DNA of 64,000 nt from an uncultured Candidatus Saccharibacteria bacterium (GTDB taxonomy: Bacteria > Patescibacteriota > Minisyncoccia > Phycocordibacterales > UBA2100). Position 1 is the first letter of the stretch. Each line of letters opens with the position of its first letter. The position numbers and the translations under genes were made by a program. The stretch is taken from contig CAYTFU010000003.1 in NCBI GenBank assembly GCA_964437185.1, positions 26,409-90,408 of the forward strand, written 5' to 3'. A model generated the notes under the pieces. It was not told where the DNA came from. It saw nothing but the letters and a program-made list of their open reading frames with translations, and searched no databases. Shown one piece after another: positions 5,897 through 21,931 of this stretch.

Positions 5897-7309
5897 TTAC
5901 TGCACAAGCACTTGGAAGTTTCCTCCAGTAATGGCTACGGGACCTGATATTCCAGCAGGAGGTGTAGGTGAGGTGAAAACTACGCTGATAGTATCCCCGC
6001 TCCCCGGCTCACCGCCATCGACAATGGTGAACGTCGCGGCAACAGGCGTCTTGGCTTGGCCTTGCGTCGTGCCCTCGGCAGTGAAGATGATGGTGCTTCC
6101 GCCCCCATCAATCGAGGTAATATTGTCGAAGTGATAGCCGACGCCGCTTATGTGGTCGACAAGCTCAAACTCGCCCTGAGGATCACCTTGCTCATCGCGC
6201 CAGACACTACCGCCGAAAGTCCAGAAGGTCGTGAAGGTCTTGCTGCTCTTCACTTTGTAGTTGCCACCACCCGTCACATATTGGATGTCGGGCATGCAGG
6301 AGTAGGTGTCAACACTCAGACTACCTGTGTTATTAGGGTAGTACACATCATTAATCAAGAACGATGCCTGATTGCCGTCTCCAACAACGAGCGCCTTGTA
6401 CTCGTGCGGGGGAGTAAAGACACCCCACGGCGTCGTACCGTTGAAGGTTAGGTCGAGCAATGTCGTGCCGAGATATTCGTACGTCGACACAGCGTCTGTC
6501 CAGCCGACCGACGTTGGTGTTCGGTAGGAGTATCGAGCATCGAAGTTGATTCCGTCTCCCGCATTCGCCATACCGTACGCGCGCAAGATATAGTTGGTTC
6601 CCGTGTCGAACGTCATGCTTGAGAGCGTGGGTGATGGATTATTGGCAGCTACGGTAACGGTTTCGAGCACGGTAGATTGTGTTGTATATGCAGGACATGC
6701 CACAGGAGGAGCAATTTCCGTTACGACTACATTATCGAGCGCGGGGCCGTAGTACCCTTCAACAGTACTTGCAAACGTCAGTGTAGTGCTCAGTCCCGTT
6801 GCCACAAATGTATAGGTCTTCGTCTCCCACTGCATATCGGCAAGTGTTGTGCCGTGAGCTACGGTGTCGTAGGAGTAGCCTGTTGATGCTCCGCCAGTCG
6901 CGCTCACGGTTAGTGTTTTGAGGGACGGGCCACCAGCGGGGTTACCCGAAAGATCGAAGGAGACTTCATAACTTGCTCCGGGAACCGTTGCAAAGGTCTG
7001 ACTAATGGCACCCGGCGTGTAGCCCGTAAGGTCAAGACTCCGACCCCCCCCTGGCGATGACTGCCAATAACTGCCGATATAATCAATTGTTCCTGATTCC
7101 ACTGTCCAACCAGCAATATTAGTAGAATCAATTGCTGCCAACGTTATAAAAACGCCAGGGGATGTGCCTGTCTCGAAACCTCCGTTGGTCACTGCTGCTG
7201 CAGCAAGAGCAGGTGCCATAAGGGCCAAGGGCGTGCAGAGCGATGCGGCGAGAGCAATCTTTGTAAAGAATTTTTTCATATTATTTTTCTGATTAATTTT
7301 AGTAAGCAA
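5897..7309 (-). CDS. Secreted protein with an N-terminal DUF642/galactose-binding-like domain
   Basis: Signal peptide; VTNGGFETG...IAGWTV.SGTIDYIGSYWQ...G.RSLDL.G...G.ISQTF.T.PGASYEVSFDLSGNP pattern; Thr/Gly-rich remainder. Confidence 0.45.
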   Translation of the reverse strand: MLTKINQKNNMKKFFTKIALAASLCTPLALMAPALAAAAVTNGGFETGTSPGVFITLAAIDSTNIAGWTVESGTIDYIGSYWQSSPGGGRSLDLTGYTPGAISQTFATVPGASYEVSFDLSGNPAGGPSLKTLTVSATGGASTGYSYDTVAHGTTLADMQWETKTYTFVATGLSTTLTFASTVEGYYGPALDNVVVTEIAPPVACPAYTTQSTVLETVTVAANNPSPTLSSMTFDTGTNYILRAYGMANAGDGINFDARYSYRTPTSVGWTDAVSTYEYLGTTLLDLTFNGTTPWGVFTPPHEYKALVVGDGNQASFLINDVYYPNNTGSLSVDTYSCMPDIQYVTGGGNYKVKSSKTFTTFWTFGGSVWRDEQGDPQGEFELVDHISGVGYHFDNITSIDGGGSTIIFTAEGTTQGQAKTPVAATFTIVDGGEPGSGDTISVVFTSPTPPAGISGPVAITGGNFQVLVQ

Positions 7310-7340
7310 CCCTAATAATTACTGCCGAGTAATTGCAATT

Positions 7341-10300
7341 TTAGTTGTCCTGATGCGCCTGTTGGTTGCCCATGTTGATGAAGAGTGGCCCGACTGTGTT
7401 GAGGACAACTTTGTCATCCTTATCCCGAATAATCATGTAAGCCTGATCTTCGCCTCCCGGCTCACCAGCGTCATTGAACATGAATTGAATGGTGGCATCC
7501 TCTACTCCATTGAAGCGTCCAGTGCCCACTCCCGTGATCGTGTCGAATTCGGCATTCGGCATTCTTGGGTCAATCTCAGGATCATCTGTACACTGTGCGC
7601 TATTAAGCGTCAGCAAGTGGAATTTCTGCGCTTTCTTGCCGTTTATGCCCCAGTTGACCTCGAGGCGATTCGGTCCGCGACTTACGTCACAGTGAAGGGT
7701 AAAGCCATGTGTCACACGCGTCTCTTTTGCAGATCGGCCTGTAACTCCGCTCAACACGACACCAGTCTCAAGTGTGTTAGGAAACACACTCCCGCCACCG
7801 GTGAAGTGACCCGGTGTGTCGTTGTTGGTGAGCGTACAGGTCATGTTTTCGCCAAGCGCGACAGTCGTATCGCCGTTTACATCACAATCTCCACTAAACC
7901 CTTCGAAGATATAGCCGGGGAGCTGTGTCTCTCCTGCGGTGTATGTACCTGGATTTACAGGAACCGCTACTCCAGAAGAAACTGGAGACCCTTCAAGCGT
8001 GAGATTGAAGTCATTAGGGTTCGCAATTCCACCGTTGCCATTATCAACCACCTTTACCACGGTAATGTACGCCTGCTGGTCGTCATTGGTGATGGTGCAA
8101 GTGACGGTCTCGCCGAGGCCAATCGATACCGTGCCGTCATTGTCGCCATTGGTGCACGACCACGAAGAAGCAGCGTAGCCAGTAGGACCGGCCGATTCAG
8201 AGAGAACATAAGAGCCGGCATCGAAAGACGCACCACTCGAAACATCAGGAGAGCCTGCCGCGCCCGGGCCAGTGATTGAGGTCGGCCCAGTTGCCGTGAG
8301 GGTCCACGCTGATTCGAGAGCCGTGCCGCCGCTGTTGTTCACAACTACTTTGTTGAGGTGAAGTACGGGCGCGATGTCATCGTTGGTAATCGTACAAGTG
8401 ACATTGTCTCCCGCCCCGAGCGTGACGGTATCGCCATCGTCCTGCGTCACACCAACGCATACCCAGTCAGAAGCAGCGTAGCCGAGAGGGCCGCCACTTT
8501 CGGAGAGGTCGTACGAACCAATCGGAACAATCGCGCTCGTGATGGAGAGATCCCCTTCTTCGCCCGATATTGTGGTCTGGTCGTTGTCTGTCGCTTCAAT
8601 CGTCCAGTCGGTATCAACCGCCGTACCACCATTGTCTATCACCACTTCCTTTTCAAGCGTAAGTGTCGGAAGTTTGGTGTTCGTGAAGGTGCAGGTGACT
8701 GTTTCTCCAGCGGCAAGGTTGATCGAGGAAGGATCGGATGCGTCATCGCACGTCGCAGATGTGAGATCCCAGCCAGCTGGTACCGTCTCAGATACTGAGT
8801 AGGTGCCAGCGTCAATATCACCAGAGTCATTCGATCCGCCATTTGCGAGTACGAATCCATCCTGGTCATAGGAAGCGGCGAAGTCGAAGTTGCCGTCGCC
8901 ACCAACAGTCACTTTGTTAACAATTATTTTGCTGTCCTTCGTGTTGGTGAAGGTGCACGTGACATTCTCACCCGCCGCGACGTTGAAGGTTGCGACGCCT
9001 GTGCCGATATTGCCAGAACTATTGCTGTCGTCGCACGTAATGTCAGTGAGGTCCCAGCCTGAAGTCACAGTCTCGGTTGAGTCATAGGTACCCGGGATGA
9101 CCTCCTGCGTCGCAGTATCATTGTCGTTCAAGATGCCAGAGACATCACCGGTGAAGGTGAAGTCAGCATCGCCGCCAATGGTCTGCTTCTCGATGGTAAT
9201 CGAGCCGTGCTTCGTATTTGTGAAGACACAGGTGACTGTCTCACCCGCCGTGAGGTCGATAGTGGCTGCACTTTCGATGCCCTCGATTGAACTTGTGCAG
9301 ACCGTCGACGTGAGGTCCCATCCCGCAAGCTCAGTCTCCGCGACAGAGTACGTCCCCGGATTGAGGTCGCCCGAGTCGTCTTGCTGGCCATCGGAAATAT
9401 CCGCGTCTCCGCTGCCATACGAGAGATCGAAGTCGAAGACCGCAAGATCGCCATCGGGTATTGTCTGCTTCTCGACGATAATATTGGCATCCTTTTGATT
9501 CGTAAATGTACAGGTGATGGTTTCCCCCGCGTCGAGGTCAAGATCTTGTCCATCAGTATCTACAGGGTCACCGAGCGAGCTCGCGCAGCTAATCGATGTG
9601 TTGTCCCAACCAGCTTCCGCTGCTTCCGTGACATCGTAGACACCAGGAGCGAGGTCGCCAGAGTTGTTTGCGGTGGAACCGTCAGCGAGAACAAACGGCA
9701 AGCCGTAGTCAGTGGTGAAGCCGAACTCGGTGAGGTCGCCTGCAGGATCAGTCACCTTGTCGACGATGATAAACGCATCGGCTTCGTTGGTGAACGTACA
9801 CGTGATCTCCTCACCAGCGTTCGGAGTAATCTGGTTTACAGGATCTCCATTGCTGCATGTCGCACTCAAGAGATCCCATCCTGCTGGCACTGGAGTTTCT
9901 GCCATCGTGTAGGTGTTGTCTGGGTCGAGATCACTAAATACTTGTGAAGCTGTATTTGCGACCGTCGTCAATTGCGCACTCGAAGGAAGGCCAGCGCCCG
10001 TCATTACGAAGTCAAACGTGCCATTCCCACCGATTGTATTTTTTACAAGCGTGATCTTTGCAAGCTTCTCGTTTGTGAATGTGCACGTAACAGTTTCACC
10101 TGGCTCAACATCTATACTATTAATTGCCTCACCCTTGTCACATGTCGCGCTCTCCTGTTGCCAACCCGCAATAGCTGCTTCTGAGACCGTGTACGATCCG
10201 GGAACGACTTCGAAATCTCTTTGTTTCGGCAAGGCATTCCCTATATCCCCGTCGTCATCGAGAAGAAATGCACCAATGCTACCGCTCCCCGTAAAGGAGA

Positions 10301-13232
10301 AATCTTGCGTGCTGTTTGGTATTGCATTCTTGATAATTACGACATGACCACGCTTTGTGTTCGTGAATGTACACGTGACTGTTTCGCCAGCGCCAACATC
10401 AATATCCCCCACCGTTTCGCCCTGATCGCAGGTAGCCGAAGCCTGATCCCATCCGGCCGGAATCGTTTCTGTAACATTGTACTTGCCTGGAATTACAGAC
10501 TGACTGTTTGGTGCTGCAGCATCCGTAAGCGAAAAACTGACGTAACCAGCTCCTCCGGCAGTAAAGCTAAAGCTCTGAGTATCGCCGCTAGGATTGGTTA
10601 CTTTATCGACGATGATTGTGCCGTTTTGAGTATTGGTGAAGGTACAAGTGACGGTCTCCCCAGCTTGTAGTGAAATATTATTCACTGCACTACCGTCACT
10701 ACAGCTCGTATTCGTCAGGTTCCATCCGGCCGGAATGTTGACCTCCGATACTGAATACGTGCCTGGCGCAAGTATGCCGCTGTCACTGGCCGCAGCGGCG
10801 TCCGTAAGGTTGAAGTTGCTAACGCTCCACGAAGGGTCAAATTCAAATGATTGGTTCGAGCCCGAAGGATCAGTCACCTTGTCGATTAGAATCTTACCCT
10901 GCTTCGTATTAGTGAACGTACAGGTCACGTGCTCGCCTGCGCCGACAGTGATGGACTGTATGGTTTCGTCGAGGTCACAAGTTGCAGACGTGAGATCCCA
11001 GCCTGTAGGAACCGATTCTGTGATGTTGTACTCACCAGGTACGAAGTTATTAACGGTCTGACTTGCGGTACCACCTGAAGTGGTGAGCTGTGTAACGCCT
11101 GTGCTTCCAGTAAAGTCGAATGTGCCGTCACCACCAATTGTGTTCTTCACGATAGTGATTGAGCCGCGCCTCGTGTTGGTGAAGGTGCAAGTAATAGTTT
11201 CTCCCGCATCGAGCTCAAGGGTGCCTATAGTTTCAGTGTCTCCTATTGAGCTCACGCACGTGGCGGATGTGAGATCCCATCCCGTTGGAACAGTTTCAGA
11301 GATCGAATAAATGCCAGCATTTAGTGACTGACTGTTCGGTTGCGCAGCGTCCGTAAGAGAGAAGCCATTGTACCCAGTGCCACCCGCAGTAAAGCTGAAG
11401 CTTTGCGCGTCCGCAGCTGGGACGGTTACTTTATCGACAATAATCGTACCTTGCTGGAGAGTATTCGTGAATGTGCAAGTCACCGATTCGCTTGCAGCAA
11501 GATTGATAGTAGCGGTTCGAGTATTGAGGTCAACTGTTGAATTTGTAGTCGGATCAACGCACACAAGGTTTGTGAGGCTATACCCCGCCGCAGATGCCTC
11601 TGACACCGTGTATGCTCCCGGCGCTAACGCTGAGAATACCCGTGTGTTTGGAAGCGACCCATCGCCATCGTCGTCAAGCGAGAAATTCGTTAGGCCTGCG
11701 CCAGTTGTGGTAAAAGCAAAATCCTGTGAATCATTGGGCACAGTATCTTTAATGATTGTGATGGTCGCGTTATTTGGGATAAGAATATCTGCTCCTTTTA
11801 TCTGATTGTCTTGTGAGCCGCCCGTGCCGTCGAACTTAACCGTCTTGATGTGGTATGGGCCACCGCTAATCTGAGACGAACCGAGCCCAGGGCCCCAACT
11901 CACACCCGTCCCATCGCCTGTTACAGCTAGGTGCCCGCCGAAGAATAGCAAAATGTCGCAACCGTCCGCCGCGCTACACCCTGAAGTCGTGAACGGAATT
12001 GTTACGGTAACGACCGAGTCGCCTGTGTCACCATTCGCGGCCACGTCGTGCGCAAGAGTTATCGCACCTGGAGTAATAGTCCCTCCGTCGATGTAAATCG
12101 AGATATTACGAGGAGCTCCAAAATCCGCCATATAGGCATTCTCCTTGTTAGTCTGAGCTGCTGAGGAGCCATCCTTACTATCGAACGGATCGTTTGGAAT
12201 AGGTACAAGATGGTCAGGGGCGCTTCCTGAGGGATTTAGGTTCGTACATGCAGCTGCGTCTGCCCCCGCAAGATCCGAACAAGCGTTCAAAGTTGGAGTT
12301 CCAGGCGCAAACGATCCATTACCCTGTGCGCCCCCAGTGTTTGGATTCACAGTCGTCAAAAAGTCGTACGCGTGAATGCCGGCCTTCGTGTACTGATACG
12401 TGAACGTAATGCTGTGGGCCCCGTCCACAACTTTCGCGTCACGAAAGAGCAGCCTTTGAGGAACGGTCATTCCCTCGTAATAAATTGAGTTTGATTGCTG
12501 GACAATCGAGCCGATCCAATTGCACTCTCCCGCCGTAGGATTATTGTTCGAGCATTGGGTAAAGCTCGTTTGCAGTGGGTCTATAACACTGGTTGTGGCC
12601 AATACTGCACCATCCCCGTCCTCAGCAGAAATAGTATAAAGAGGAGTAAAAAGATCGGACAAAACGTAGTTATACGTAAACACACCTGTCTCATCAGTCA
12701 CGATGTTAAATACTTCCGTGGAATAAATTTCTGAAGGGTTGAGAAGTGATCCACCTACAATTCTCAGAACAATATTCTGTATTGCAGTAAAAAACCTTCC
12801 AAAAATAGAGACGGTTTCCTCAGGATTATATTCGGCCTTTTCTGTCGAGAGCTCGGGTGAAGGGGTCGAGGCTGCTACGGCAGCGCTTTGATCGGTAGAA
12901 TCGTTGGAGGATGATTCCGTGGTAGTCGTGGTAGAAGTGTCTTCTGGTGCGTCAACAGGAGCGTCTGTCTGCTCGGAGGTTGTCGAATCCGTACTCCCTT
13001 CACTCGCCGTAGAATCTTCCGCAACGGTATCTGCAGGTGCGTCTGCTGTCGCATCACTACTAGCGGTCGTCTCTGTAGAAGTGTCCGCAGGAGATTCGGT
13101 CGCGGCTACCGTAGTGTCCGTTAGCTCCTCGGCATACGAAACGGAATGTAAAAAAAGCATCATAAAACCCATCGATGAAAAAAGCATCAACGCTGCGATG
13201 GTCTTGCGCACATTTATTGTTGAGAGAGTCAT
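7341..13232 (-). CDS. Giant secreted surface protein (1963 aa) with an acidic S/T-rich linker and 14 tandem ~95-aa prealbumin/SpaA-like repeats, each with a conserved Cys pair
   Basis: Signal peptide MTLSTINVRKTIAALMLFSSMGF...; 14 repeats ending in the motif [VIM]TC[TV][FIL]TN across about 7650-11600; no internal stops. Confidence 0.75.
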   Translation of the reverse strand: MTLSTINVRKTIAALMLFSSMGFMMLFLHSVSYAEELTDTTVAATESPADTSTETTASSDATADAPADTVAEDSTASEGSTDSTTSEQTDAPVDAPEDTSTTTTTESSSNDSTDQSAAVAASTPSPELSTEKAEYNPEETVSIFGRFFTAIQNIVLRIVGGSLLNPSEIYSTEVFNIVTDETGVFTYNYVLSDLFTPLYTISAEDGDGAVLATTSVIDPLQTSFTQCSNNNPTAGECNWIGSIVQQSNSIYYEGMTVPQRLLFRDAKVVDGAHSITFTYQYTKAGIHAYDFLTTVNPNTGGAQGNGSFAPGTPTLNACSDLAGADAAACTNLNPSGSAPDHLVPIPNDPFDSKDGSSAAQTNKENAYMADFGAPRNISIYIDGGTITPGAITLAHDVAANGDTGDSVVTVTIPFTTSGCSAADGCDILLFFGGHLAVTGDGTGVSWGPGLGSSQISGGPYHIKTVKFDGTGGSQDNQIKGADILIPNNATITIIKDTVPNDSQDFAFTTTGAGLTNFSLDDDGDGSLPNTRVFSALAPGAYTVSEASAAGYSLTNLVCVDPTTNSTVDLNTRTATINLAASESVTCTFTNTLQQGTIIVDKVTVPAADAQSFSFTAGGTGYNGFSLTDAAQPNSQSLNAGIYSISETVPTGWDLTSATCVSSIGDTETIGTLELDAGETITCTFTNTRRGSITIVKNTIGGDGTFDFTGSTGVTQLTTSGGTASQTVNNFVPGEYNITESVPTGWDLTSATCDLDETIQSITVGAGEHVTCTFTNTKQGKILIDKVTDPSGSNQSFEFDPSWSVSNFNLTDAAAASDSGILAPGTYSVSEVNIPAGWNLTNTSCSDGSAVNNISLQAGETVTCTFTNTQNGTIIVDKVTNPSGDTQSFSFTAGGAGYVSFSLTDAAAPNSQSVIPGKYNVTETIPAGWDQASATCDQGETVGDIDVGAGETVTCTFTNTKRGHVVIIKNAIPNSTQDFSFTGSGSIGAFLLDDDGDIGNALPKQRDFEVVPGSYTVSEAAIAGWQQESATCDKGEAINSIDVEPGETVTCTFTNEKLAKITLVKNTIGGNGTFDFVMTGAGLPSSAQLTTVANTASQVFSDLDPDNTYTMAETPVPAGWDLLSATCSNGDPVNQITPNAGEEITCTFTNEADAFIIVDKVTDPAGDLTEFGFTTDYGLPFVLADGSTANNSGDLAPGVYDVTEAAEAGWDNTSISCASSLGDPVDTDGQDLDLDAGETITCTFTNQKDANIIVEKQTIPDGDLAVFDFDLSYGSGDADISDGQQDDSGDLNPGTYSVAETELAGWDLTSTVCTSSIEGIESAATIDLTAGETVTCVFTNTKHGSITIEKQTIGGDADFTFTGDVSGILNDNDTATQEVIPGTYDSTETVTSGWDLTDITCDDSNSSGNIGTGVATFNVAAGENVTCTFTNTKDSKIIVNKVTVGGDGNFDFAASYDQDGFVLANGGSNDSGDIDAGTYSVSETVPAGWDLTSATCDDASDPSSINLAAGETVTCTFTNTKLPTLTLEKEVVIDNGGTAVDTDWTIEATDNDQTTISGEEGDLSITSAIVPIGSYDLSESGGPLGYAASDWVCVGVTQDDGDTVTLGAGDNVTCTITNDDIAPVLHLNKVVVNNSGGTALESAWTLTATGPTSITGPGAAGSPDVSSGASFDAGSYVLSESAGPTGYAASSWSCTNGDNDGTVSIGLGETVTCTITNDDQQAYITVVKVVDNGNGGIANPNDFNLTLEGSPVSSGVAVPVNPGTYTAGETQLPGYIFEGFSGDCDVNGDTTVALGENMTCTLTNNDTPGHFTGGGSVFPNTLETGVVLSGVTGRSAKETRVTHGFTLHCDVSRGPNRLEVNWGINGKKAQKFHLLTLNSAQCTDDPEIDPRMPNAEFDTITGVGTGRFNGVEDATIQFMFNDAGEPGGEDQAYMIIRDKDDKVVLNTVGPLFINMGNQQAHQDN

Positions 13233-13427: not shown

Positions 13428-13446
13428 CACGTAGAGGGAGGGATGG

Positions 13447-13722
13447 CTATGCTGCGGTCGGTGTTGCGCTTCCGACGGAGACGGGGATACCACCTTTTAT
13501 GTTCGTTTGTAGTTTAGCGAGAAATTCTCGCTGCGACGAAACATCGAGGATCTCAACGCCGACGACATCTCCCTTGGCATCAAAATCTACAACAAACGTA
13601 TCGGAATTCTTATGAGTACGGGCAACCTTCTCATCTGTCATTTTGAGGTACACAGCGTCGGCCAGCATGTCGTATTTTATGTCCATAATTTTATAAATTA
13701 TCTGGATAATATGCTGTGACAA
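13447..13722 (-). CDS. DUF2283-family protein (antitoxin partner of DUF4258)
   Basis: MDIKYDMLADAVYLKMTD... matches the DUF2283 N-terminal signature; overlaps the upstream DUF4258 gene by 32 nt. Confidence 0.65.
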   Translation of the reverse strand: MSQHIIQIIYKIMDIKYDMLADAVYLKMTDEKVARTHKNSDTFVVDFDAKGDVVGVEILDVSSQREFLAKLQTNIKGGIPVSVGSATPTAA

Positions 13723-13948
13723 TTACGTACTCCACATCTTTCTTGGTTCCCCATTTGAAGTATATAACCTCTATTACCCTCGCGTCATCAACCTTCTTTC
13801 GGACCAGTACTCTACCTTCAAAAGCGTGCTTTGTAAAGTCTGGCGAACTGATCGCTCGCTTGATGTGATCAACATCAATGCCTCGTTCCACCAATCGGCT
13901 CTGAAAATGCGCGGTGAAGCGAAGTCTCATAGTAATAGTAAGCGACAA
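13691..13948 (-). CDS. DUF4258-family protein (putative toxin of the DUF4258/DUF2283 pair)
   Basis: 85 aa, HFQSRLVERGIDVDHIKRAI...; the conserved pairing with DUF2283 is established knowledge. Confidence 0.6.
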   Translation of the reverse strand: MSLTITMRLRFTAHFQSRLVERGIDVDHIKRAISSPDFTKHAFEGRVLVRKKVDDARVIEVIYFKWGTKKDVEYVIVTAYYPDNL

Positions 13949-14093
13949 ATGGTGAGCGTAGGGTTCCAGTATAGCCTACTTGTGGACATTCACTTGATTT
14001 CGCCTTGAGCTAGGGCATAGTTGGGATACAACGGCTTCGGCCTCGAGGCGGCGGAAACGCCACCTCTTATATTTTGCACTTCAACAAGGGTAA

Positions 14094-14140
14094 CCCTTAC
14101 AGAAACCCTTGCGGAAAGGGTTACTCTTGCCTAAGCTTTT
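14094..14140. repeat. REP family 1 doublet
   Basis: CAAGGGTAACCCTT at 14094-14107 and AAAGGGTTACTCTTG at 14126-14140. Confidence 0.8.
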
Positions 14141-14260: not shown

Positions 14261-14803
14261 ATGAAAACGCATATAGCGGTTTTGGTAGGGATTATCAGTG
14301 TTATGTCTCCGGGCCTTGCGTTTGCCAACCTCTTAAACGCAGGCGTGGGGGTAAACGGAAATGTTGAGAGCAATCTCGAACTAGAGGTGGAGGAGCGCGA
14401 TCGCGAGGCAAATGAGGTGAGTGCCACCGCAAAGCTCGGGATTGGAGCGAGCACATCTGCGAGTGCGCGGGAAGATGCTCGAGATGATCGTGCAACTTCA
14501 AGTCGTGGCAATTCGGATGAAGCGGGCGATACTGCCCCGAACGCAACGAGCTCCGAGCACCGCAAAGATGGCGAAAACGCGTCCGGTGAGGATGGTCGCG
14601 GATTCGGCAAGGGCGGGCTCGTCGGGTTCTTTCGCTGGATATTCGGCCTCCCCGATGACACAACTGTCGGAGAGATCCGCACAGAGCTTCAGGCTACAAC
14701 GACCCTTTCGACAAGCTCAGGGCAGGCCGTGAGCACGGATTCGTCCTCGCAAGGTTTGGGATTCTGGGCTCGAATCTTTGGATTCCTCTCGCTGGGTAAT
14801 TAA
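14261..14803 (+). CDS. Secreted low-complexity acidic/Ser-rich protein (hypothetical)
   Basis: Signal peptide MKTHIAVLVGIISVMSPGLAFA; only + strand gene in the island; followed by a terminator. Confidence 0.5.
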   Translation: MKTHIAVLVGIISVMSPGLAFANLLNAGVGVNGNVESNLELEVEERDREANEVSATAKLGIGASTSASAREDARDDRATSSRGNSDEAGDTAPNATSSEHRKDGENASGEDGRGFGKGGLVGFFRWIFGLPDDTTVGEIRTELQATTTLSTSSGQAVSTDSSSQGLGFWARIFGFLSLGN

Positions 14804-14814
14804 CGTGCCATTCG

Positions 14815-14848: not shown

Positions 14849-14862
14849 GTTCTCAAGATCCC

Positions 14863-14877
14863 CAAGGGTTAACCTTG
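14863..14877. repeat. Degenerate REP family 1 unit
   Basis: CAAGGGTTAACCTTG. Confidence 0.5.
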
Positions 14878-14958
14878 CCCTTTTATGCCTGTGGATATTC
14901 ACTTGATTTTCATCCCCTATGATATACACTTTGTGGACAAATGGCCTTCGGGCTCGGG

Positions 14959-14986
14959 CCGCTCGCAAGAGCGGCTCAAATTTTTT
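14959..14986 (+). terminator. Second hairpin plus T-tract (GCAA tetraloop)
   Basis: GCCGCTC-GCAA-GAGCGGC-TCAAATTTTTT. Confidence 0.5.
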
Positions 14987-14996
14987 AAGGCGGTTT

Positions 14997-15398
14997 CTAG
15001 AGAATTGACCTCACCCGCTGACGAATCTCCTCATAGGTGTTTTTAGGTATTCGGCCCATCTTGACGAGCAACCGCTTTGAATCGAGTAGGCGCACCTGCG
15101 AAAGCAAAGCTGTGCTCTCGCCGCCAAGAAACGCAAAAGTGTAATGGTATTTACCATCGCGTTTCGCTGTGGTGAGCGGTATTCCAACAAATACATTCTT
15201 ACTGTACTTTTTTAGCACGAGTACTGGCCGAGCAAACTTCTCCCCCTTGCCATCTTGCTCGAAACCAATGTTGACACCAATGGCACACCACCATACCTCG
15301 CGTTCGTAAAAATAAAGATTAAACTCACTTTTACTGGTAGATTTTTTTCGCTCGTTCCACGTATCGAAATCCTTTTTCATTTCGCACAATGTTGTCAC
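14997..15398 (-). CDS. PemK/MazF-family toxin (orphan, no adjacent antitoxin ORF)
   Basis: EVWWCAIGVNIGFEQDGKGEKFARPVLVLKK....VGIPLTT matches the MazF/PemK signature (GEVWWVDLG..GSEQ.G.RP.LV...VIVAPLTT). Confidence 0.6.
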   Translation of the reverse strand: MTTLCEMKKDFDTWNERKKSTSKSEFNLYFYEREVWWCAIGVNIGFEQDGKGEKFARPVLVLKKYSKNVFVGIPLTTAKRDGKYHYTFAFLGGESTALLSQVRLLDSKRLLVKMGRIPKNTYEEIRQRVRSIL

Positions 15399-15420
15399 GG
15401 CAAAAGACCCGTTCCACGAT

Positions 15421-15453
15421 CAAGGGTAACCCTTTCAGAAAGGGTTACCCTTG
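15421..15453. repeat. REP family 1 doublet
   Basis: CAAGGGTAACCCTT at 15421-15434 and AAAGGGTTACCCTTG at 15439-15453. Confidence 0.85.
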
Positions 15454-15466
15454 CGGTTATAAACCG

Positions 15467-16183
15467 CTAGCGGTTGCCACGGCGAGGGGCGCCGATGACG
15501 CTTACCGTGCCATTTGCGAGGCGGATGTCGACGGTGCTCACGTTGTCGAGCTCGTCGGTCTCGAAAATGTGACCCTTCGGATCGATCTCTATCTTGAGAC
15601 GATAATCGCCGTCCGGAAGCCCTGTGATGTCGATAGACTGGCCGTCGAGTTGGTAGCCGTAGGTGTCACCCCAACCCACCGACATGCCCTGCACCTGATC
15701 TCCGCAGGAACTATAGACCGCTTGCTTCGGCGCTCCTGGGAGCTTGGTATTCATGCGCGTAGTGTCCATCACGCAGAATGTCATCTTGCTACCTACGCGA
15801 TTTTCTTGACCGTTTGCGGTAATCGGCTGGAGCGTGTACGCCGCATAATCGTCGAAGTGGAAATGATTGTGCGCTACGTGCCACGTAAAGGTGCCCGCCT
15901 TATATTCCGTATTCGTTCCGTCGTCATTGTAAACGCGCTGGAAGACATCTTGACCGTTGCTGATCACATCCCCTGCAAAAAGTTCTAGCGGCCCCGCGCC
16001 ATTGTTCCACGCCGTCGTGCTAAAGCGGAGAGACGTGCCCACAAGTGTGTTTTCAAGTCGAATATTGCTCGCCGGAAGTGCTTTTAGATTGGGCACGAGC
16101 TGCGACGCGGCGTGAAGATGCCCGCCAAACATCACAACCAACCCCGCCACAGAAAGCGCGGAGTATGCAATGGTGTTTTTCAT
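15467..16183 (-). CDS. Secreted lysyl oxidase-like copper amine oxidase (LOX catalytic domain homolog)
   Basis: Signal peptide. WHVAHNHFH matches the LOX copper site WHSCHQHYH. SKMTFCVMDT aligns with GHKASFCLEDT (LTQ Lys). GDTYGYQLDGQSIDITG aligns with YDTYGADIDCQWIDITD (LTQ Tyr). C-terminal DYRLKIEIDP...ETDELDNV matches NYILKVSVNP...ESDYTNNV. Confidence 0.75.
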   Translation of the reverse strand: MKNTIAYSALSVAGLVVMFGGHLHAASQLVPNLKALPASNIRLENTLVGTSLRFSTTAWNNGAGPLELFAGDVISNGQDVFQRVYNDDGTNTEYKAGTFTWHVAHNHFHFDDYAAYTLQPITANGQENRVGSKMTFCVMDTTRMNTKLPGAPKQAVYSSCGDQVQGMSVGWGDTYGYQLDGQSIDITGLPDGDYRLKIEIDPKGHIFETDELDNVSTVDIRLANGTVSVIGAPRRGNR

Positions 16184-16189
16184 ACGCGG

Positions 16190-16972
16190 TTATTCGCGGT
16201 GGTTGCGCGCGCGGTCCTCAGCCCAGTACACGTGTCGGAGGGTGCGCTCGCCGTGACCCAAATCCTGCTCAAAAATGGAGACGCGGCCATTGGACGATCG
16301 GTAAATCTCTTTACCCCACGCTTTCGGATCGTTGGAATCTGTATCCGCTCCGGACGATGCAGTGGACTGAGCAATCGTCGTCGAGCCATCGAGATGCGAA
16401 TAGATTGCTGCGAGCTGATCGTAATCATGGTGATTCGGCTTGGTGCTGTTCGGGCTGCTCGAGTAGTCCATACAGGTGCTCTGCGACGATCCGTCTTCGC
16501 TCGTATGGCCAAGACCGAACAAGTGCCCAACTTCCTGACACATGACGTGCAACTTCTCATCTGGGTTGTTGTATTGCGGAAGATTGAAATAGCTGTCGTT
16601 CATCTTGGCCGTACCCTTCGTGATATGCGAACCGTTAATCCATATCTGCGCGAGTCCTATCCAGCCATTGTATCCATACTTACGGTTACAGACCTCGATG
16701 CGGCCAGTCGTCGCCTTGCAGTTACTACCTCCTTGCCCAGTTACTACGACAGTGTCGAGAACGCTCGATGCGCTCCAGTCTGCTGATGCGGTAGCGAGAT
16801 ACGAATCCCACGTGCTACTTACATTGTCTCCCATCTTTATCGTAAACGGATTGGCTGTACGAGCCCAGTGATAACTCCCCCACGCGTGACTGGCGAAGAC
16901 CGTGGTCGCGCCAAGGAGCACTACAACGCCGAGTGCCGCGACGGAAATGCCTGCCTTTGTGATCTTATTCAT
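16190..16972 (-). CDS. Secreted zinc metalloprotease, metzincin (snapalysin/M7-like)
   Basis: Signal peptide; HEVGHLFGLGH (HExxHxxGxxH) followed by Met-turn CMDY; 6-nt gap to the downstream LOX-like gene. Confidence 0.7.
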   Translation of the reverse strand: MNKITKAGISVAALGVVVLLGATTVFASHAWGSYHWARTANPFTIKMGDNVSSTWDSYLATASADWSASSVLDTVVVTGQGGSNCKATTGRIEVCNRKYGYNGWIGLAQIWINGSHITKGTAKMNDSYFNLPQYNNPDEKLHVMCQEVGHLFGLGHTSEDGSSQSTCMDYSSSPNSTKPNHHDYDQLAAIYSHLDGSTTIAQSTASSGADTDSNDPKAWGKEIYRSSNGRVSIFEQDLGHGERTLRHVYWAEDRARNHRE

Positions 16973-17063
16973 AATAGTATGAGTGTTTAGGTTAATGTCT
17001 AAATGGTACGGTGCATTTCTGCACTCGTCAAGGTCCGCCGCTGCATATCCAAAAAAGGCTTTA

Positions 17064-17438
17064 TTATTGCGCTAAATTTCGTGTAAGAAACAGGATACGT
17101 TTTGCGAGCACATACGCGCCAAGCGGATCTGACGATTCTGTGGCGTACGCAGGCCAACCTTCCACTGCCTTCTCAAGCCCCAAATTTTCAAACGCCTCTT
17201 TTAAATACTGAAGGGAGCGCGCGTCGTTTTCCGGCGGGAGCGCGCCTGTAGAAAGATATGGTCGAAAATCTTTGCGGCGATCGAGTGCTGCCTGCTCATT
17301 TGGCAGGTCCGAAAGGAGCGCGCGTGCCCAATCAATCGCCTTTTGCTGCTCTGGGGTCGCCCGAGGTTTTCCATCTTTCTGCGAAGCACCCGCCGGTGAT
17401 TCAGATTCTGAATTGCTCATCGGCCAAGTATACCGCAC
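17064..17438 (-). CDS. Hypothetical protein
   Basis: 124-aa ORF abutting the upstream CAP gene stop (17439); no recognised motif. Confidence 0.35.
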   Translation of the reverse strand: MRYTWPMSNSESESPAGASQKDGKPRATPEQQKAIDWARALLSDLPNEQAALDRRKDFRPYLSTGALPPENDARSLQYLKEAFENLGLEKAVEGWPAYATESSDPLGAYVLAKRILFLTRNLAQ

Positions 17439-18593
17439 TTACGGAAGCGCGGCAGCCGCGCTCGCCATCGTGGCTTGCGGCGTGACGAGGGTGGGCAAAA
17501 AGACAAACGAATCCGCAGCCACAAGCACAGCAAGGATAAACGAGAGCATCACACCCGCGGCAACCGCCTTGCGCGTGTGATGAAGTCGGATTTCCCACTC
17601 CGTGGCAACTCCGAGAGCAATCACAATGAGAATCGCGAGGGTCCAATACAGGTACTGCATCATGCTGCGCGGCGACGCGGCGATGTGCGCCCAAATAGAT
17701 GCGTAGTTGGGCGTGGAACCCGCGACGACCGTGACGGGTGGCGCCACTTTGCTCGGCTTCACCGCTTCGGGTGCGGGTGCAGGAACTTCCTCCGCTGCTG
17801 TCCCAAGTACTTCAACCTCTTTCTCCACTCCCCCCTGCGCGATCACCCGATCTTCGGATGTCTCTGGCGCGGGCTCTTGCTCTGCGACCGGCACAGGCGT
17901 CACCTCTCCCAGGACCGATGGAGCAGAAGTCGCGAGAGCGATTTCGCTTGGGCTTTCAGGTATCGAGACGCCTGCGAGCGCTCGCTGCACGCCCGACGAA
18001 GATGGGGTGCCGAAAACCTGGGCCACAAATGTCGTGCGACGTCCCCGGTAGGTACCTTCCGCGATCGCAATGCCGATTTCTGTAAACTTGGGATTCAAAA
18101 TGTTTTCGCGGTGAGTGGGAGAATTCATCCACGCGCGCTCGACGTCGCTCGATTCAGAAAAGTCGACCGCGAGATTCTCGCCCGCGTAGTCAAACGCATA
18201 CCCTTCCTGTGTAAACCAATGCCACGGATCAATTCCTTCGGGAGAAATGTGCGCGAAATAGCTCTTTGCCGCCATGTCGTTGGCCTTGGCCTGCGCGACT
18301 GCTGTAAGGGCGGGGCTCAATGTAAGCGCGGTGAGGCTGTTTTGCGTACGATCACCATTGGTCAGATCCACAAGGACGGTGGCAAGCACCGACGCGTACT
18401 GCTGAGACGTAATGAAGTAGCGATCGACGGATGACCCGATAAAAATCGAGACGACGAGTGCCGAAACAATCGCCACGCCCGCGCCGCCAAAAAGCTCCGC
18501 TTCTTTACGCCCTTTTTTGCTCCGAGGCAGGAGGGATCGCAACATCGATCGCCGCGCAAGCGCGTTTTTCTTCGGCTCTTTCTTGCGCACCAT
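17439..18593 (-). CDS. Membrane-anchored CAP/SCP/PR-1 domain protein
   Basis: N-terminal basic region and TM; CAP signature ...ERAWMNSPTHRENILNPKFTEIGIAIA...; Pro/Glu-rich linker; C-terminal TM. Confidence 0.65.
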   Translation of the reverse strand: MVRKKEPKKNALARRSMLRSLLPRSKKGRKEAELFGGAGVAIVSALVVSIFIGSSVDRYFITSQQYASVLATVLVDLTNGDRTQNSLTALTLSPALTAVAQAKANDMAAKSYFAHISPEGIDPWHWFTQEGYAFDYAGENLAVDFSESSDVERAWMNSPTHRENILNPKFTEIGIAIAEGTYRGRRTTFVAQVFGTPSSSGVQRALAGVSIPESPSEIALATSAPSVLGEVTPVPVAEQEPAPETSEDRVIAQGGVEKEVEVLGTAAEEVPAPAPEAVKPSKVAPPVTVVAGSTPNYASIWAHIAASPRSMMQYLYWTLAILIVIALGVATEWEIRLHHTRKAVAAGVMLSFILAVLVAADSFVFLPTLVTPQATMASAAAALP

Positions 18594-18621
18594 CCTTTCA
18601 TTGTCTCATGTGAGTGCCAAC

Positions 18622-18656
18622 GCAAAAACCGCCCTCTGTGGAGGGCGGTTTTTTTA
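18622..18656 (-). terminator. Rho-independent terminator (bidirectional hairpin) 3' of the adhesin gene
   Basis: AAAAA-CCGCCCTC-TGTG-GAGGGCGG-TTTTTTT. Confidence 0.7.
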
Positions 18657-18721
18657 CCTCTTTGTTGTCTATGGAGACATGTGGATCCCACTCCTGTGGA
18701 GTTGGGATGCCTGCGCGTTGC

Positions 18722-21700
18722 CTAGGGCAACGGCGGCAATGGAATATTCAAGCTTGAGCACTTGAGCATGTTGATCCAGCGTTTGGTCGTCTTGTAGACG
18801 TAGCCGGTCGTCTCGCCCTGCTTCAAGAGTCCGCGATCAACCCATGGCTTCAAGACGCCGTCGTTCTCACTTGCCTGGAAGTCTCGCACTGCCTTGTCGG
18901 TCATTGGGCCAAAGACGCCGGTGATCGGGAGCGAAATCTTCATCTGCTCATTGAGGAACGTCTGGAGCTTCTTCACTTCCTCCGGATCGTTCTTCGTGCT
19001 GATGCGGAGGTAATCGCGCAGGAACGGAGCGCACGATGCGCCGAGCACCTGACCAGTCGATGTACCGAGCACCTGGCCCGGACCGAAAGTCGGATTACCG
19101 AAGTCGGTTCCCCCACCGCCTGTTGTCCTTGGAGGTGTAGGTGTAGTTACGACCGGCGTGTTTACCTTTATAACTACGCTCCCGTCGTCATTTGCATCGT
19201 TGGTTTCGGCATTCTCGTGAGACGAAACCGCGGTGTTCGTCACTTCAGTACCGGCGGATGCCGTTACCGTAGCGACAATCTGAAGTGATGTCGTTGCGTT
19301 TGCGGCGAGAGATCCGATAGTCCATACGCCGGTCGAAGTAGCGTAATCACCCTCTCCATTGTCGGAAACGTACGTCAAGCCAGAAGGAAGGTTATCAGTT
19401 ACGGAGACTCCCGACGCAGTAGCTGGGCCGCTGTTGGATACGGTGATGGTGAACGTTACATTCTGTCCGTTATCCGGCGTTGCGTCATCTACCTCTTTTG
19501 TCACTGCGATATCCGAACCTGTCGGAATGATCGTGTTGACGAAGGTACAAGTAATGTCATCTCCCGCGATGAGATTGCTAAAGCCCGCAAACGAACCGTC
19601 ATAATTGACCGCCGCATCAGATTCAAGCGGAGAGTCGATCACACACACCAAGCTTGTGAAGTCCCACCCTTGTGCCTGGTTCTCGCTCACGGAACTAGAG
19701 CCATCGATATCGAGAGCTACCGTTTCAGAGCCGGCTCCTCCTTCGGTCGTGATCTCAACATCAGTCTCCATACCTTGCACATTGAACGTGAACGTGCCGT
19801 TTCCACCGACCGTATTCTTCACGATCGTGAGTGTCGGGATGAAAGGGGCACAATCCGCGTCTTCAAGATCCACGCCGCCGCCTTGGCTACCGTCGTCGTT
19901 GTCGTTGTCAATGCCATCGGAGCATTCCGCGAGTGTGTTTTCTGTAAGCGGATTTACGGTGATCGATACGGTTGACTCATTGCTGTCGACAGAGCTGTCG
20001 TTTGCCTTGAAGGTAAACGAATCCGATCCACTGAAGTTGAGATTCGGCGTGTAGGTGAACTGGCCCGTGCCTACGTTGAGGAATGTAATGCTGCCATTTG
20101 AGGGATTGCTCGTGGTGGCAAACGTAAGTGGATCGCCATCTACATCGGTCGCACCGAGGACGCCGGGGACTGCGATGTTTTGATCGGTCGTGATGGATTG
20201 ACCCGTCGAGACAGGCGCGTCGTTCACTGGATTAACGGTAATGGTTACGGTTACCGATCCGCTTAGGCCGCTATTTGTGTCGTTAACGTGATACGTGAAC
20301 GAGTCAGAACCATTGAAGTTTGCGTCTGGCGCGTAATCGAAACTACCGTCGCCGCTTAGTGTAAGAATCCCGTTCGAAACATCGGTATCAAGAACCGCCG
20401 TCATCGTATCCCCGTCGGCATCCGTGTCGTTTCCGAGTACGCCCGGGGCGGCAATCGAAAGTGTCGCATCTTCGTTGACGGAATAGGCATCGGCAACAGC
20501 ATTTGGCGCATCGTTGGTGTTGCTTACGGTCACGTTGACCGTCGCAGTATCAGTGCCACCGTTATCGTCGGATATCGTGTACGTGAAGCTGTCGGAGCCT
20601 ACGTATCCGGCGTTTGGAGTGTATTTTACAGACCCTGCATCAAGAGTAGCGGTGCCGTTTGAAGCCGACCCAACACTCTGCACCGTGAGAGTTTCTGCCG
20701 TATCGGGTGAAATTAAGTCGTTCGCAAGGACATCGATGACGTTGTCGACTGAATCTTCGTTTACGTTTGCCGAGTCATTTACTGCATCGGGATCATCGTT
20801 GACTGGCGTAACGGTGATAGAGAACGATCCACTGTTGCTTCCGATAAGATCGGCTACAGAAAAGGTGAATCCATCTGGACCATTGTAGTTGAGAGCTGGA
20901 GTGTAGCTGAAAGTACCATTCGAGTTGAGCGTGAACGCTGCGGAGTTTGTCGGCCCCGTAACGATCGCGTACGTAAGCACATCGCCCTCCGCATCAATGG
21001 CAGTAACAGCACCCGAAAAGCCGACGTCCTCTGGCGTCGTGCTCGCCTGGTCGCTCACGGGGGTTGGGAATGTATTGAAGTACGTGTTGGTAACGACACA
21101 CGTGACCGTGGTGCCTGATACTACCGTAACGGTACCGCCTGGAGCACAATCGTCACCAAACGATGTCGTGTAGTGTGCGTTCGCTGGCTCACTCACCGTA
21201 TAAGAACCTGCAGTCAGCGTGTACTCAGTACCGGTCTCGGAACCTGCCGCTGGAGATCCTGTGACGTCCACACCGCCCTGCTTCACGCTGATCGGGAACT
21301 GGTCGGCAGTCGCTGTTCCACCTCCCGTGATTACTACATTCTTAATAACAGAAAGCGTCCCTGGAACAACATTAAACTCATCGTCGTCGGTCAATCCTGA
21401 ACAACCAGGATCGGCAGGGTAGTCGATCAGCCCATCGCCATCATTATCAACGCCGTCATCGCATTGATATACAACCTCGACTGTTTGAATAAATGTGGAA
21501 AGCCCACCCTCATTACCTGCCTGATTCGCATGATGGATGCTGACTCGAATGGTGTAACTGCCGGGAGCAGAGTAGGTGTGGGAAGTAGACCATGGAGTAT
21601 CCGCAATAATTCCATTGTTTGAATTGTTTGTGAAGTTTAGATCGGTCTCGTCCATAAATACGACCCAGGCCGAAGGATCGCCCCAGTCGACAGAAATGTA

Positions 21701-21931
21701 CTGCTGATTCGCTGGGCCCGTAAAAGTATTCGCAGAAGCAATGCCACTTGCCGTCACATTGAGACCGTTCAAAGTAAGCGATCCTGATATTACGTAGTTT
21801 GCAGCTGCGTGTGCCGTGTTCGGAGCAAGCGCTACGCCCGCAAACGACATCGATATCATGCTTAGAGTTACGAAAACAGATCCCGCCTTGTCGAGAAAGG
21901 ACCCCTTGTGCGCGAAGACATTAATATTCAT
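18722..21931 (-). CDS. Large secreted adhesin-like protein (1069 aa): prealbumin-like domains, cadherin-like/VCBS repeats, DUF11 repeat, C-terminal peptidoglycan-binding domain
   Basis: Signal peptide; TVTCVVTNT and ITCTFVNT Cys-pair domains; repeated VNDDP/TNDAP/VNDAP modules; VTKEVDDATPDNGQNVTFTITVSNSG...VSVTDNLPSGLTYVS (DUF11); C-terminal KKLQTFLNEQ...GVFGPMTDKAVRDFQ. Confidence 0.7.
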   Translation of the reverse strand: MNINVFAHKGSFLDKAGSVFVTLSMISMSFAGVALAPNTAHAAANYVISGSLTLNGLNVTASGIASANTFTGPANQQYISVDWGDPSAWVVFMDETDLNFTNNSNNGIIADTPWSTSHTYSAPGSYTIRVSIHHANQAGNEGGLSTFIQTVEVVYQCDDGVDNDGDGLIDYPADPGCSGLTDDDEFNVVPGTLSVIKNVVITGGGTATADQFPISVKQGGVDVTGSPAAGSETGTEYTLTAGSYTVSEPANAHYTTSFGDDCAPGGTVTVVSGTTVTCVVTNTYFNTFPTPVSDQASTTPEDVGFSGAVTAIDAEGDVLTYAIVTGPTNSAAFTLNSNGTFSYTPALNYNGPDGFTFSVADLIGSNSGSFSITVTPVNDDPDAVNDSANVNEDSVDNVIDVLANDLISPDTAETLTVQSVGSASNGTATLDAGSVKYTPNAGYVGSDSFTYTISDDNGGTDTATVNVTVSNTNDAPNAVADAYSVNEDATLSIAAPGVLGNDTDADGDTMTAVLDTDVSNGILTLSGDGSFDYAPDANFNGSDSFTYHVNDTNSGLSGSVTVTITVNPVNDAPVSTGQSITTDQNIAVPGVLGATDVDGDPLTFATTSNPSNGSITFLNVGTGQFTYTPNLNFSGSDSFTFKANDSSVDSNESTVSITVNPLTENTLAECSDGIDNDNDDGSQGGGVDLEDADCAPFIPTLTIVKNTVGGNGTFTFNVQGMETDVEITTEGGAGSETVALDIDGSSSVSENQAQGWDFTSLVCVIDSPLESDAAVNYDGSFAGFSNLIAGDDITCTFVNTIIPTGSDIAVTKEVDDATPDNGQNVTFTITVSNSGPATASGVSVTDNLPSGLTYVSDNGEGDYATSTGVWTIGSLAANATTSLQIVATVTASAGTEVTNTAVSSHENAETNDANDDGSVVIKVNTPVVTTPTPPRTTGGGGTDFGNPTFGPGQVLGTSTGQVLGASCAPFLRDYLRISTKNDPEEVKKLQTFLNEQMKISLPITGVFGPMTDKAVRDFQASENDGVLKPWVDRGLLKQGETTGYVYKTTKRWINMLKCSSLNIPLPPLP

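Follow-up and report, generated by a model that had tools for sequence, protein, structure and literature searches.

The contig CAYTFU010000003.1 (GCA_964437185.1) carries, within the 64,000 nt analysed here (positions 26,409-90,408 of the forward strand; hereafter the window, whose own positions are used throughout), a locus of large secreted proteins, toxin modules, repetitive extragenic palindromic (REP) sequences and two transposase genes of the RAYT type (RAYT-1 and RAYT-2). The locus probably belongs to a neighbourhood of envelope genes on the chromosome, conserved across a clade of Patescibacteria and containing a slot of gene turnover, the most recent layer of which would be toxin cassettes and REPs. 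The full order would read histidyl-tRNA synthetase (HisRS), SET, VIT1, thioredoxin, DsbB, (FAD oxidase), slot 2, adhesin, CAP-domain protein, zincin-like protein, slot 1, a peptidoglycan-binding (PG)/FN3 protein, PilB, PilC and pilins, with the products of the conserved genes predicted to be secreted or membrane-anchored. The adhesin would display a fast-changing ectodomain on a conserved tail held in the wall. Slot 1 (4.3-16.2 kb), the putative site of turnover, would hold an older pair of genes, for a low-complexity protein and a 1963-aa disulfide-rich repeat protein, together with lineage-specific additions, namely a choice-of-anchor C protein, a lysyl-oxidase-like (LOX) oxidase, three toxin cassettes, and RAYT-1 with its palindrome REP-1. 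The toxin cassettes and REPs look like the most recent layer because REP-1 is lineage-specific, locally multiplied and marks the cassette borders. Turnover itself may possibly be caused by RAYT-catalysed or REP-mediated recombination.

Genes were called from an open reading frame (ORF) listing together with Pfam and NCBIfam profile scans of the window proteins (Table 1), and these sources agree almost gene for gene with the genes and places named in an earlier model-generated description (the sequence-only reading). The nearest relatives of PilB, HisRS and other window proteins are metagenome-assembled Patescibacteria, and those CAP and RAYT-2 homologues that bear a source name belong mostly to Candidatus Kaiserbacteria or Parcubacteria. 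One sample series, in seven sequencing runs or assemblies, yielded 10 contigs that match the window at 99.99-100% identity, which rules out an assembly chimera. Among those 10 contigs of the population there are no indels, structural variants or changes in repeat number, and the repeat-number variation that had been proposed as something to look for was therefore not seen. Synteny was compared using the CAP neighbourhoods of five relatives, all from metagenome-assembled genomes: L171, L173, L179, L175 and L177, whose CAP proteins share 68%, 62%, 62%, 60% and 47% identity, respectively, with that of the window. PilB identity to the window is 89% in L171, 86% in L173 and 84% in L179; the L175 locus stops short of the PG/FN3-PilB flank, and PilB also lies outside the L177 locus.

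Four of the relatives (L171, L173, L175 and L179) share the order HisRS, SET, VIT1, thioredoxin, DsbB, (FAD oxidase), large adhesin, CAP and zincin-like protein, and in L171, L173 and L179 the series then runs on into the PG/FN3 protein, PilB and PilC. The zincin-like orthologues are 55-64% identical in the four relatives, while the PG/FN3 orthologues are 42-56% identical in the latter three and adjoin PilB every time. Because the relatives keep the identical gene order, the segment at 16.2-21.9 kb (adhesin, CAP and zincin-like genes) is clade core rather than accessory DNA. Of the interval that had been proposed to be one accessory island, only 4.3-16.2 kb differs among relatives. In a wider synteny comparison based on PilB, island genes were shared by only the closest relative among 80 loci.

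Slot 1 lies between the zincin-like gene and the PG/FN3 gene, and its content differs from genome to genome. It is empty in L179, in which 190 nt separate the zincin-like gene from the PG/FN3 gene, and contains two genes in L173. In L171 it holds a RAYT-2-type gene and genes for 882-aa and 544-aa proteins. The slot of L175 has at least five genes, among them Amidase_3, a gene for a 249-aa protein, a homologue of the low-complexity gene, and a gene for a 1931-aa giant with SpaA repeats. This giant is syntenic with the 1963-aa protein of the window (31% identity over residues 126-1718). It is directly adjoined, on the opposite strand, by the low-complexity homologue, whose resemblance to the syntenic window protein is weak (28% identity). 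In the window, a DUF4258/DUF2283 pair and a REP-1 doublet separate the giant from the low-complexity gene, whereas L175 is without such a pair. Because the homologues of the flanking genes adjoin directly in L175, the DUF4258/DUF2283 pair is interpreted as a later insertion into an older giant/low-complexity gene pair. No counterpart of RAYT-1, ParDE, the DUF642 protein, PemK, LOX or the 124-aa ORF was found in any of the five relatives' loci.

A second variable slot is bounded by the FAD-oxidase and adhesin genes. Its window version contains genes for a helix-turn-helix (HTH) protein, a 121-aa protein with four transmembrane (TM) segments, thioredoxin, CcdA, redoxin and RAYT-2; the HTH and four-TM genes overlap and form the far end of the redox block. 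The redox genes of slot 2 are missing in L171, L173, L175 and L179, and the more distant L177 has a fused CcdA-Redoxin at the slot 2 position (54-59% identity). The thiol-redox block, which had been taken as a fixed border of the locus, is on these grounds better described as variable, though old at its position.

REP-1 is the palindrome CAAGGGTWACCCTTG, of which there are 17 copies in the window against 0.01 expected (search pattern AAGGGTWACCCTT, one mismatch allowed). The REPs announced in the sequence-only reading are thus real, and a second palindrome is found three times at RAYT-2. Of the 17 REP-1 copies, 14 are concentrated at 4.3-15.5 kb, no more than 11 kb from RAYT-1. At five sites two copies form an inverted doublet, which folds as single-stranded DNA into one hairpin of 14-15 bp (approximately -16 kcal/mol, z approximately -7). 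An alignment of all 17 copies has no conserved GTAG/CGTC head. RAYT-1 is flanked on both sides by REP-1 (4321-4414 and 5119-5223) and has no internal copy, the best match within it having 5 mismatches in 13 positions. Direct 85-nt REP-spacer-REP units, 602 nt apart and with a conserved 48-nt spacer, enclose the ParDE cassette. Position 5793, within the REP cluster, is the point at which four independent assemblies break off. PemK also has REP-1 on both sides. Altogether, of the 7 intergenic gaps bordered by a toxin gene or RAYT-1, 6 contain REP-1; the gaps between other genes of the locus contain none.

One REP-1 doublet is located outside the slots, between the convergent SET and VIT1 genes, which overlap without a gap in L171 and L173; here a REP seems to have inserted recently, and cleanly, into the backbone. 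None of the relatives' loci contains REP-1 or dispersed palindromes of its own. Because the relatives' loci carry no REP-1 and the doublet splits the otherwise overlapping SET and VIT1, REP-1 is taken to be a recent and lineage-specific element, locally multiplied, whose copies coincide with the junctions of lineage-specific cassettes. This pattern is consistent with turnover linked to REP/RAYT activity, but falls short of proving it. RAYT-1 is a predicted Y1 HUH transposase with the motifs NHFHIL and YIHLNP (Pfam Y1_Tnp, 29.7 bits, cut-off 23). In the NCBIfam family REP_Tyr_transpos (NF047646), RAYT-1 scores 44 bits and RAYT-2 scores 39 bits, both below the cut-off of 80. Within the visible 64 kb, RAYT-1 and REP-1 appear to behave like a classical REP/RAYT pair.

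The gene overlaps of ParE with the 62-aa ORF (14 nt) and of DUF4258 with DUF2283 (32 nt) point to type II toxin-antitoxin pairing in both cassettes. PemK, described as an orphan in the sequence-only reading, has no plausible antitoxin ORF nearby, and a PADLOC scan of the small proteins and the RAYTs returned nothing beyond generic HTH. Two paralogous 105-nt intergenic elements, A and B, adjoin toxin genes and REP-1 copies. They have in common a 21-nt box, CTGTGGAYATTCACTTGATTT, and a UUCG-type mini-hairpin, followed in each by a GC hairpin, of differing sequence, with a T-run on the plus strand. Elements A and B are without a match in Rfam and may be genes for small RNAs, or else remnants of the promoter regions of toxin cassettes.

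RAYT-2, with the motifs NHYHLL and YIHLNP, belongs to a large family in Patescibacteria (more than 3300 proteins in the search). The best PDB match of its AlphaFold2 (AF2) model (pLDDT 80.9) is the E. coli RAYT 4er8. Its palindrome, GTGGGATTTACGAAATCCCAC, has three copies in the window, all at RAYT-2: one in each flank of the gene and one in frame within the ORF. The RAYT-2 homologue of L011/L171 (L011 3386-4155) has the same three-hairpin layout with another palindrome, GATAGACCTCSGAGGTCTATC, at spacings of 545 and 183 nt, as against 543 and 181 nt in the window. This layout was tested in 77 loci for which both flanks were present, comprising 75 metagenome loci of the family (within L091-L170), the window and L011. 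Of the 77 loci, 68 have a flank hairpin whose stem is 7 bp or longer, and in 47 of these 68 its 21-nt core recurs inside the ORF with at most four mismatches. The internal copy is situated at ORF nt 132-173 in 46 of the 47 loci; in 46 of the 47, likewise, the next-best site elsewhere in that ORF differs from the core at 6-10 positions. The palindromes differ widely from locus to locus and the three copies match within a locus; therefore, the three copies co-vary. There is no rule for the loop orientation of the three hairpins, since all four patterns are about equally common.

The residues encoded by the internal hairpin fall in the sole disordered segment of the AF2 model (residues 39-55, pLDDT <50), and this predicted loop seems able to accommodate whatever amino acids the hairpin specifies. 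The presence of three matching copies would reflect either continual homogenisation or selection to match, and the internal copy would either serve as a target for regulation or self-limitation or have arisen as a by-product when the copies were homogenised. It is conceivable, if tentative, that the enzyme recognises a site in its own gene or transcript, which would amount to built-in self-regulation or self-limitation of a RAYT/IS200-type element, of a kind not known to have been described for enzymes of this class. No mention of an in-frame internal hairpin was found in the RAYT and HUH literature searched, and the triple-hairpin transposase gene is apparently undescribed so far. RAYT-2 looks more element-like than RAYT-1. 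Two RAYT-2 homologues from other organisms (L109 and L156) adjoin FAD-oxidase/DsbB/thioredoxin or PilB/PilC genes.

A more direct role for these elements, in which RAYT-1 mobilises REP-bounded cassettes and genes adjacent to RAYT-2-type units are brought into the slots along with them, is rather unlikely as the cause of the shuffling. It draws on the bracketing of toxin cassettes by REP-1, with ParDE between its direct units as the example, and on the RAYT-2-type gene that stands at the boundary of conserved and variable DNA both here and in L171. The L171 gene has a different position in its locus and the opposite strand. It is also only 54% identical to RAYT-2, less than the best database matches (67-68%), and for both reasons simple vertical descent is disfavoured. 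However, no empty/filled-site pair with a REP-bounded cassette or with hairpin breakpoints was found, the 10 contigs of the population have no structural variants, and RAYTs are not known to move genes. RAYT-2 homologues do not cluster with adhesin or pilus loci: the 80 homologues occur in unrelated contexts, and only approximately 3 are near pilus or redox genes; 2-3 of the 80 loci hint that the neighbourhood is a recurrent landing place for RAYT-2. The slots of REP-free relatives are equally variable, so that turnover does not require REP-1. The earlier statement that the locus is maintained or shuffled by REP/RAYT activity is therefore left with circumstantial support, namely the REP-1 copies at cassette junctions.

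The two PG-binding domains of the locus had been suggested to target a partner cell, on the premise of a thin-walled organism. Patescibacteria are commonly regarded as episymbionts, and this general reputation lends the proposal some appeal, as do the type IV pilus genes next to the locus, its Ig-like repeat adhesins, protease-like protein, CAP protein and LOX-like oxidase, and the variation of the outer adhesin domains among species. The thin-wall premise conflicts with MurJ, a Mur ligase and a Fem/ATE-like transferase, all encoded in the window, because of which the organism is predicted to make peptidoglycan and to have its own wall. With these wall genes present, and with the PG-binding tail forming the C-terminal, conserved and anchor-like end of the adhesin, the tails are most simply read as anchors to the organism's own wall. 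No partner is identified by any feature of the locus. A host-interaction locus of an episymbiont, with PG-binding domains and adhesins that grip the wall of the partner instead of its own, is thus unlikely. Such a function would be compatible with the conserved envelope neighbourhood as far as the distal domains are concerned, but not for the PG-binding tails.

In composition, the locus differs little from its surroundings. GC content is flat along the window and not different inside and outside the interval (p = 0.28), and codon-usage fit does not differ significantly either (p = 0.11). GC content at third codon positions (GC3) is 0.548 inside and 0.596 outside (p = 0.009), a shift due to the RAYT and toxin genes and the giant; the genes for LOX (GC3 0.66), the zincin-like protein and CAP have native-looking values. 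Of the compositional deviation that was to be looked for in an island, only the GC3 component therefore appeared. Conserved order without compositional deviation, which the sequence-only reading had held to speak against an island, is found in part, in the relatives' synteny. No integrase was matched by Pfam among the locus genes, no tRNA gene lies near the locus borders (the nearest is 33.9 kb away), and the repeat analysis of the window gave no direct-repeat boundary on the scale of an island. No Rfam boundaries lie near the locus, and a relaxed search of the REP and intergenic DNA yielded only sub-threshold, terminator-driven matches. A horizontally acquired accessory island over the whole interval, in which the surface proteins arrived with mobile and addiction elements and the toxins retain the island, is very improbable: it would account for the toxin modules, the two Y1 transposases, the slightly low GC3 and the absence of DUF642, LOX, the toxin modules and RAYT-1 from the five relatives, but not for the synteny of the adhesin, CAP and zincin-like genes and both flanks in four relatives, the syntenic counterparts of the giant and low-complexity protein in L175, the lack of island boundaries or the near-native composition. 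A single island was rejected for the near-native composition and the synteny of the backbone genes inside the interval, and is largely refuted for 16.2-21.9 kb.

Several points weigh against a conserved envelope neighbourhood with a turnover slot. The link between REP-1 and cassette junctions is partly trivial, the REP-free gaps being short, operon-type gaps with little room for insertion. The GC3 of the slot genes is somewhat below that of the rest, and some of them, especially the toxin modules and RAYTs, may be of foreign origin. The comparisons are based on metagenome-assembled genomes, with five relatives having enough sequence, and none of these relatives is at strain level. Protein functions are taken from domains, and localisation from N-terminal hydrophobic segments.

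Table 1. Features of the locus and related genes, in window positions.
Feature	Position	Strand	Remarks
PG-binding/FN3 protein	2895-4136	minus	Secreted; coiled-coil, PG_binding_1 and two FN3-like domains (Pfam); directly upstream of pilB; backbone
REP-1 doublet	4321-4351		14-bp stem, 5-nt loop; DNA fold -15.7 kcal/mol, z -7.1
Single REP-1	4402-4414		Overlaps RAYT-1 stop codon
RAYT-1	4407-5093	minus	Y1_Tnp
REP-1 cluster	5119-5229		Holds the first 85-nt REP-spacer-REP unit, 5145-5229
ParE toxin	5243-5527	minus	Pfam ParE_toxin, 33.4 bits
62-aa ORF, putative antitoxin	5514-5702	minus	Overlaps ParE by 14 nt; no family
Two overlapping 85-nt units	5747-5831, 5810-5894		87% and 69% identical to the first unit
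DUF642/choice-of-anchor C protein	5897-7279	minus	Secreted; post-COAP-1-like C-terminus
1963-aa SpaA-repeat giant	7341-13232	minus	Pfam SpaA_4, SpaA_2; secreted
DUF2283	13447-13722	minus	Pfam; overlaps DUF4258 by 32 nt
DUF4258, toxin-like	13691-13948	minus	Pfam; paired with DUF2283
Element A	13975-14078		Paralogous to element B
REP-1 doublet	14086-14128		Follows 105-nt element A, beside the DUF4258 pair
180-aa low-complexity secreted protein	14261-14803	plus	No family (Pfam, NCBIfam)
Degenerate REP-1	14864-14876		Precedes 105-nt element B
Element B	14883-14987		Paralogous to element A
Orphan PemK/MazF-like toxin	14997-15398	minus	Pfam, 44.5 bits
REP-1 doublet	15422-15452		Between PemK and LOX; fold -16 kcal/mol, z -7.3
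Lysyl-oxidase-like protein (LOX)	15467-16183	minus	Pfam Lysyl_oxidase, 69.5 bits (cut-off 20.4); secreted
Zincin-like protein	16190-16972	minus	Secreted; all Pfam matches below cut-off; backbone
124-aa ORF	17064-17438	minus	No signal peptide, no family; window-specific
CAP-domain protein	17439-18593	minus	Pfam, 65.7 bits; membrane-anchored; backbone
1069-aa adhesin	18722-21931	minus	Pfam Big_9/Cadherin x4, SpaA_4, DUF11, PG_binding_1; backbone
RAYT-2 palindrome, 3' flank	22157-22177	minus (gene)	Palindrome search
RAYT-2	22207-22860	minus	Pfam Y1_Tnp, 24.0 bits (cut-off 23)
RAYT-2 palindrome, in frame in ORF	22700-22720	minus (gene)	ORF nt 141-161, residues 47-54
RAYT-2 palindrome, 5' flank	22881-22901	minus (gene)	Palindrome search
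Second variable slot	22913-26093	minus	Redoxin/Thioredoxin_10, CcdA, thioredoxin, 121-aa four-TM protein, HTH protein
REP-1 doublet	30858-30888		In the 75-nt gap between convergent SET and VIT1
MurJ	37395-39104		
Fem/ATE-like transferase	47761-48684		
Mur ligase	60888-62153		

A Kyte-Doolittle hydrophobicity scan, used for signal, anchor and TM segments, gives an N-terminal signal or anchor segment in eight proteins of the locus (Table 1), in line with the earlier description of a locus for secreted and surface proteins. Seven large proteins have a single N-terminal hydrophobic segment, and the CAP protein has an N-terminal anchor and two C-terminal TM segments. That almost every gene is either a mobile or addiction element or codes for a large signal-bearing protein is borne out except for the 124-aa ORF. 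The only plus-strand gene of the locus is that of the low-complexity protein. The giant, the adhesin, the DUF642 protein and the PG/FN3 protein all lack a C-terminal LPXTG motif with a hydrophobic tail.

The giant consists of a signal peptide, an acidic low-complexity stretch, an Ig-like domain, a head domain, SpaA-type repeats and a C-terminal domain. The repeats, with the motif TC[TV][FIL]TN, number exactly 14, as had been counted before. Its 36 cysteines are all paired: each repeat has two, the head has three pairs and the tail a further pair. The two in each repeat suggest that disulfides, and not isopeptide bonds, are formed there. A plausible role of DsbB, thioredoxin, CcdA and redoxin, encoded nearby, is to serve the paired cysteines of the surface proteins. 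The head domain (residues approximately 210-480, window approximately 11780-12600) has 141 homologues across many bacterial and archaeal phyla, located at the N-terminus of large surface proteins. AF2 models it with a pLDDT of 89.9, but neither Pfam nor NCBIfam has a family for it, and its PDB matches do not exceed TM 0.24. The DUF642 protein scores 82.8 bits with Pfam DUF642, 144.9 with TIGR04362 (cut-off 120) and 35.1 with post_COAP_1 (below the cut-off of 40). A C-terminal domain common to the giant and the DUF642 protein (BLASTP, 43 residues, E = 0.003) is suggestive and was not relied on.

The C-terminus of the adhesin (SpaA_4, DUF11 and PG_binding_1) is 49-58% identical in L171, L173 and L175, and its cadherin/Big_9 part (residues 192-756) is 55% identical in L179; the outer N-terminal domains are exchanged between species. 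CAP has more than 1200 homologues. The zincin-like protein carries the motif C-Q-E-V-G-H-x-F-G-L-x-H, in which Gln replaces the first zinc-binding His. This Gln is invariant in four close orthologues, and in a family of approximately 2000 representative proteins a sample of 39 has Q in 27 and H in 11. His35, His116, His182 and His193 are near-invariant, a Met follows a conserved Cys, and PDB matches are at E = 0.14 or worse. A canonical metzincin, the earlier label, was rejected, as the HEXXHXXGXXH motif is not matched by QEVGHxFGLxH and the Pfam scores are below cut-off; what is left is a resemblance. LOX aligns with human LOXL2 (PDB 5ze3; E = 5e-12), with its WHVAHNHFH copper motif, the K of GSKMTFC and the Y of DTYGY matching the copper and cofactor residues of LOXL2. 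As a stand-alone secreted domain, LOX is missing in the five relatives yet has native codon composition.

The locus is ordinary in kind: a surface-protein region of variable content, together with toxin cassettes and a REP/RAYT system. The REP/RAYT (REPIN-RAYT) systems of Proteobacteria, which include E. coli TnpA-REP (PDB 4er8) and those of Pseudomonas and Stenotrophomonas (PMC2817692, PMC5581495, PMC8266576), resemble the window in several respects. Both window proteins are of the Y1 HUH type with a YIHLNP-type tyrosine helix, each gene is flanked by its own palindromes, those of RAYT-1 are repeated in intergenic DNA, often as inverted doublets forming one long hairpin, and the RAYT-2 model is closest in structure to 4er8. 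Unlike those systems, both proteins are below the NCBIfam RAYT cut-off and are distant relatives only. The REP-1 unit is also very short (15 nt), without a GTAG/CGTC head, and strongly clustered by its RAYT rather than dispersed within the visible 64 kb, and the RAYT-2 palindrome is nearly restricted to its own gene, with a third, in-frame copy. The IS200/IS605 elements (TnpA of IS608 and ISDra2) are similar in structure and likewise have subterminal hairpins on either side of a small Y1 transposase gene. In addition, two related genomes have the RAYT-2-type unit at different positions, and many of its homologues are on very short contigs. The window proteins differ from TnpA in being longer (217-228 aa), with a RAYT-type C-terminal extension and the YIHLNP motif; multiple gene copies were not seen within the window, and occasional solo hairpins (11 in 334 kb) occur in the flanks of RAYT-2 homologues. 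No paper joining RAYTs or REPINs with Patescibacteria, or the candidate phyla radiation (CPR), was found in the literature searched.

Hypervariable surface-protein or plasticity regions share with the locus the conserved flanks, the species-specific slot and the enrichment in secreted proteins and toxin modules. Here, by contrast, there is no integrase, tRNA or phage remnant, and the slot lies inside a co-directional envelope cluster beside a pilus operon in a reduced CPR genome. The Cna/SpaA (MSCRAMM-like) adhesins of Gram-positive bacteria also have a signal peptide, long prealbumin-like/SpaA arrays and a distinct N-terminal head. They differ from the window proteins, which have no LPXTG sortase signal and are anchored, where this is evident, by a PG_binding_1 tail; the repeats of the giant have two cysteines each, and its head has no Pfam family or close PDB fold. 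LOX shares with LOXL2 the WHxxHxHxH copper motif and the aligned Lys and Tyr cofactor positions, but stands alone as a secreted domain of 238 aa, is encoded by a CPR bacterium and is absent from the five relatives.

The comparison separates a core envelope set (adhesin, CAP, zincin-like and PG/FN3 proteins beside pilus and thiol-redox genes) from a slot of fast turnover. The core set would be a candidate attachment apparatus, while the slot proteins would be strain- or species-specific. The window also provides an example of a REP/RAYT system in Patescibacteria, with very short palindromes clustered around toxin cassettes. The part most deserving of attention is the triple-hairpin RAYT gene which, if functional, would be a simple and testable case of a transposase-like enzyme that recognises a site in its own coding sequence.

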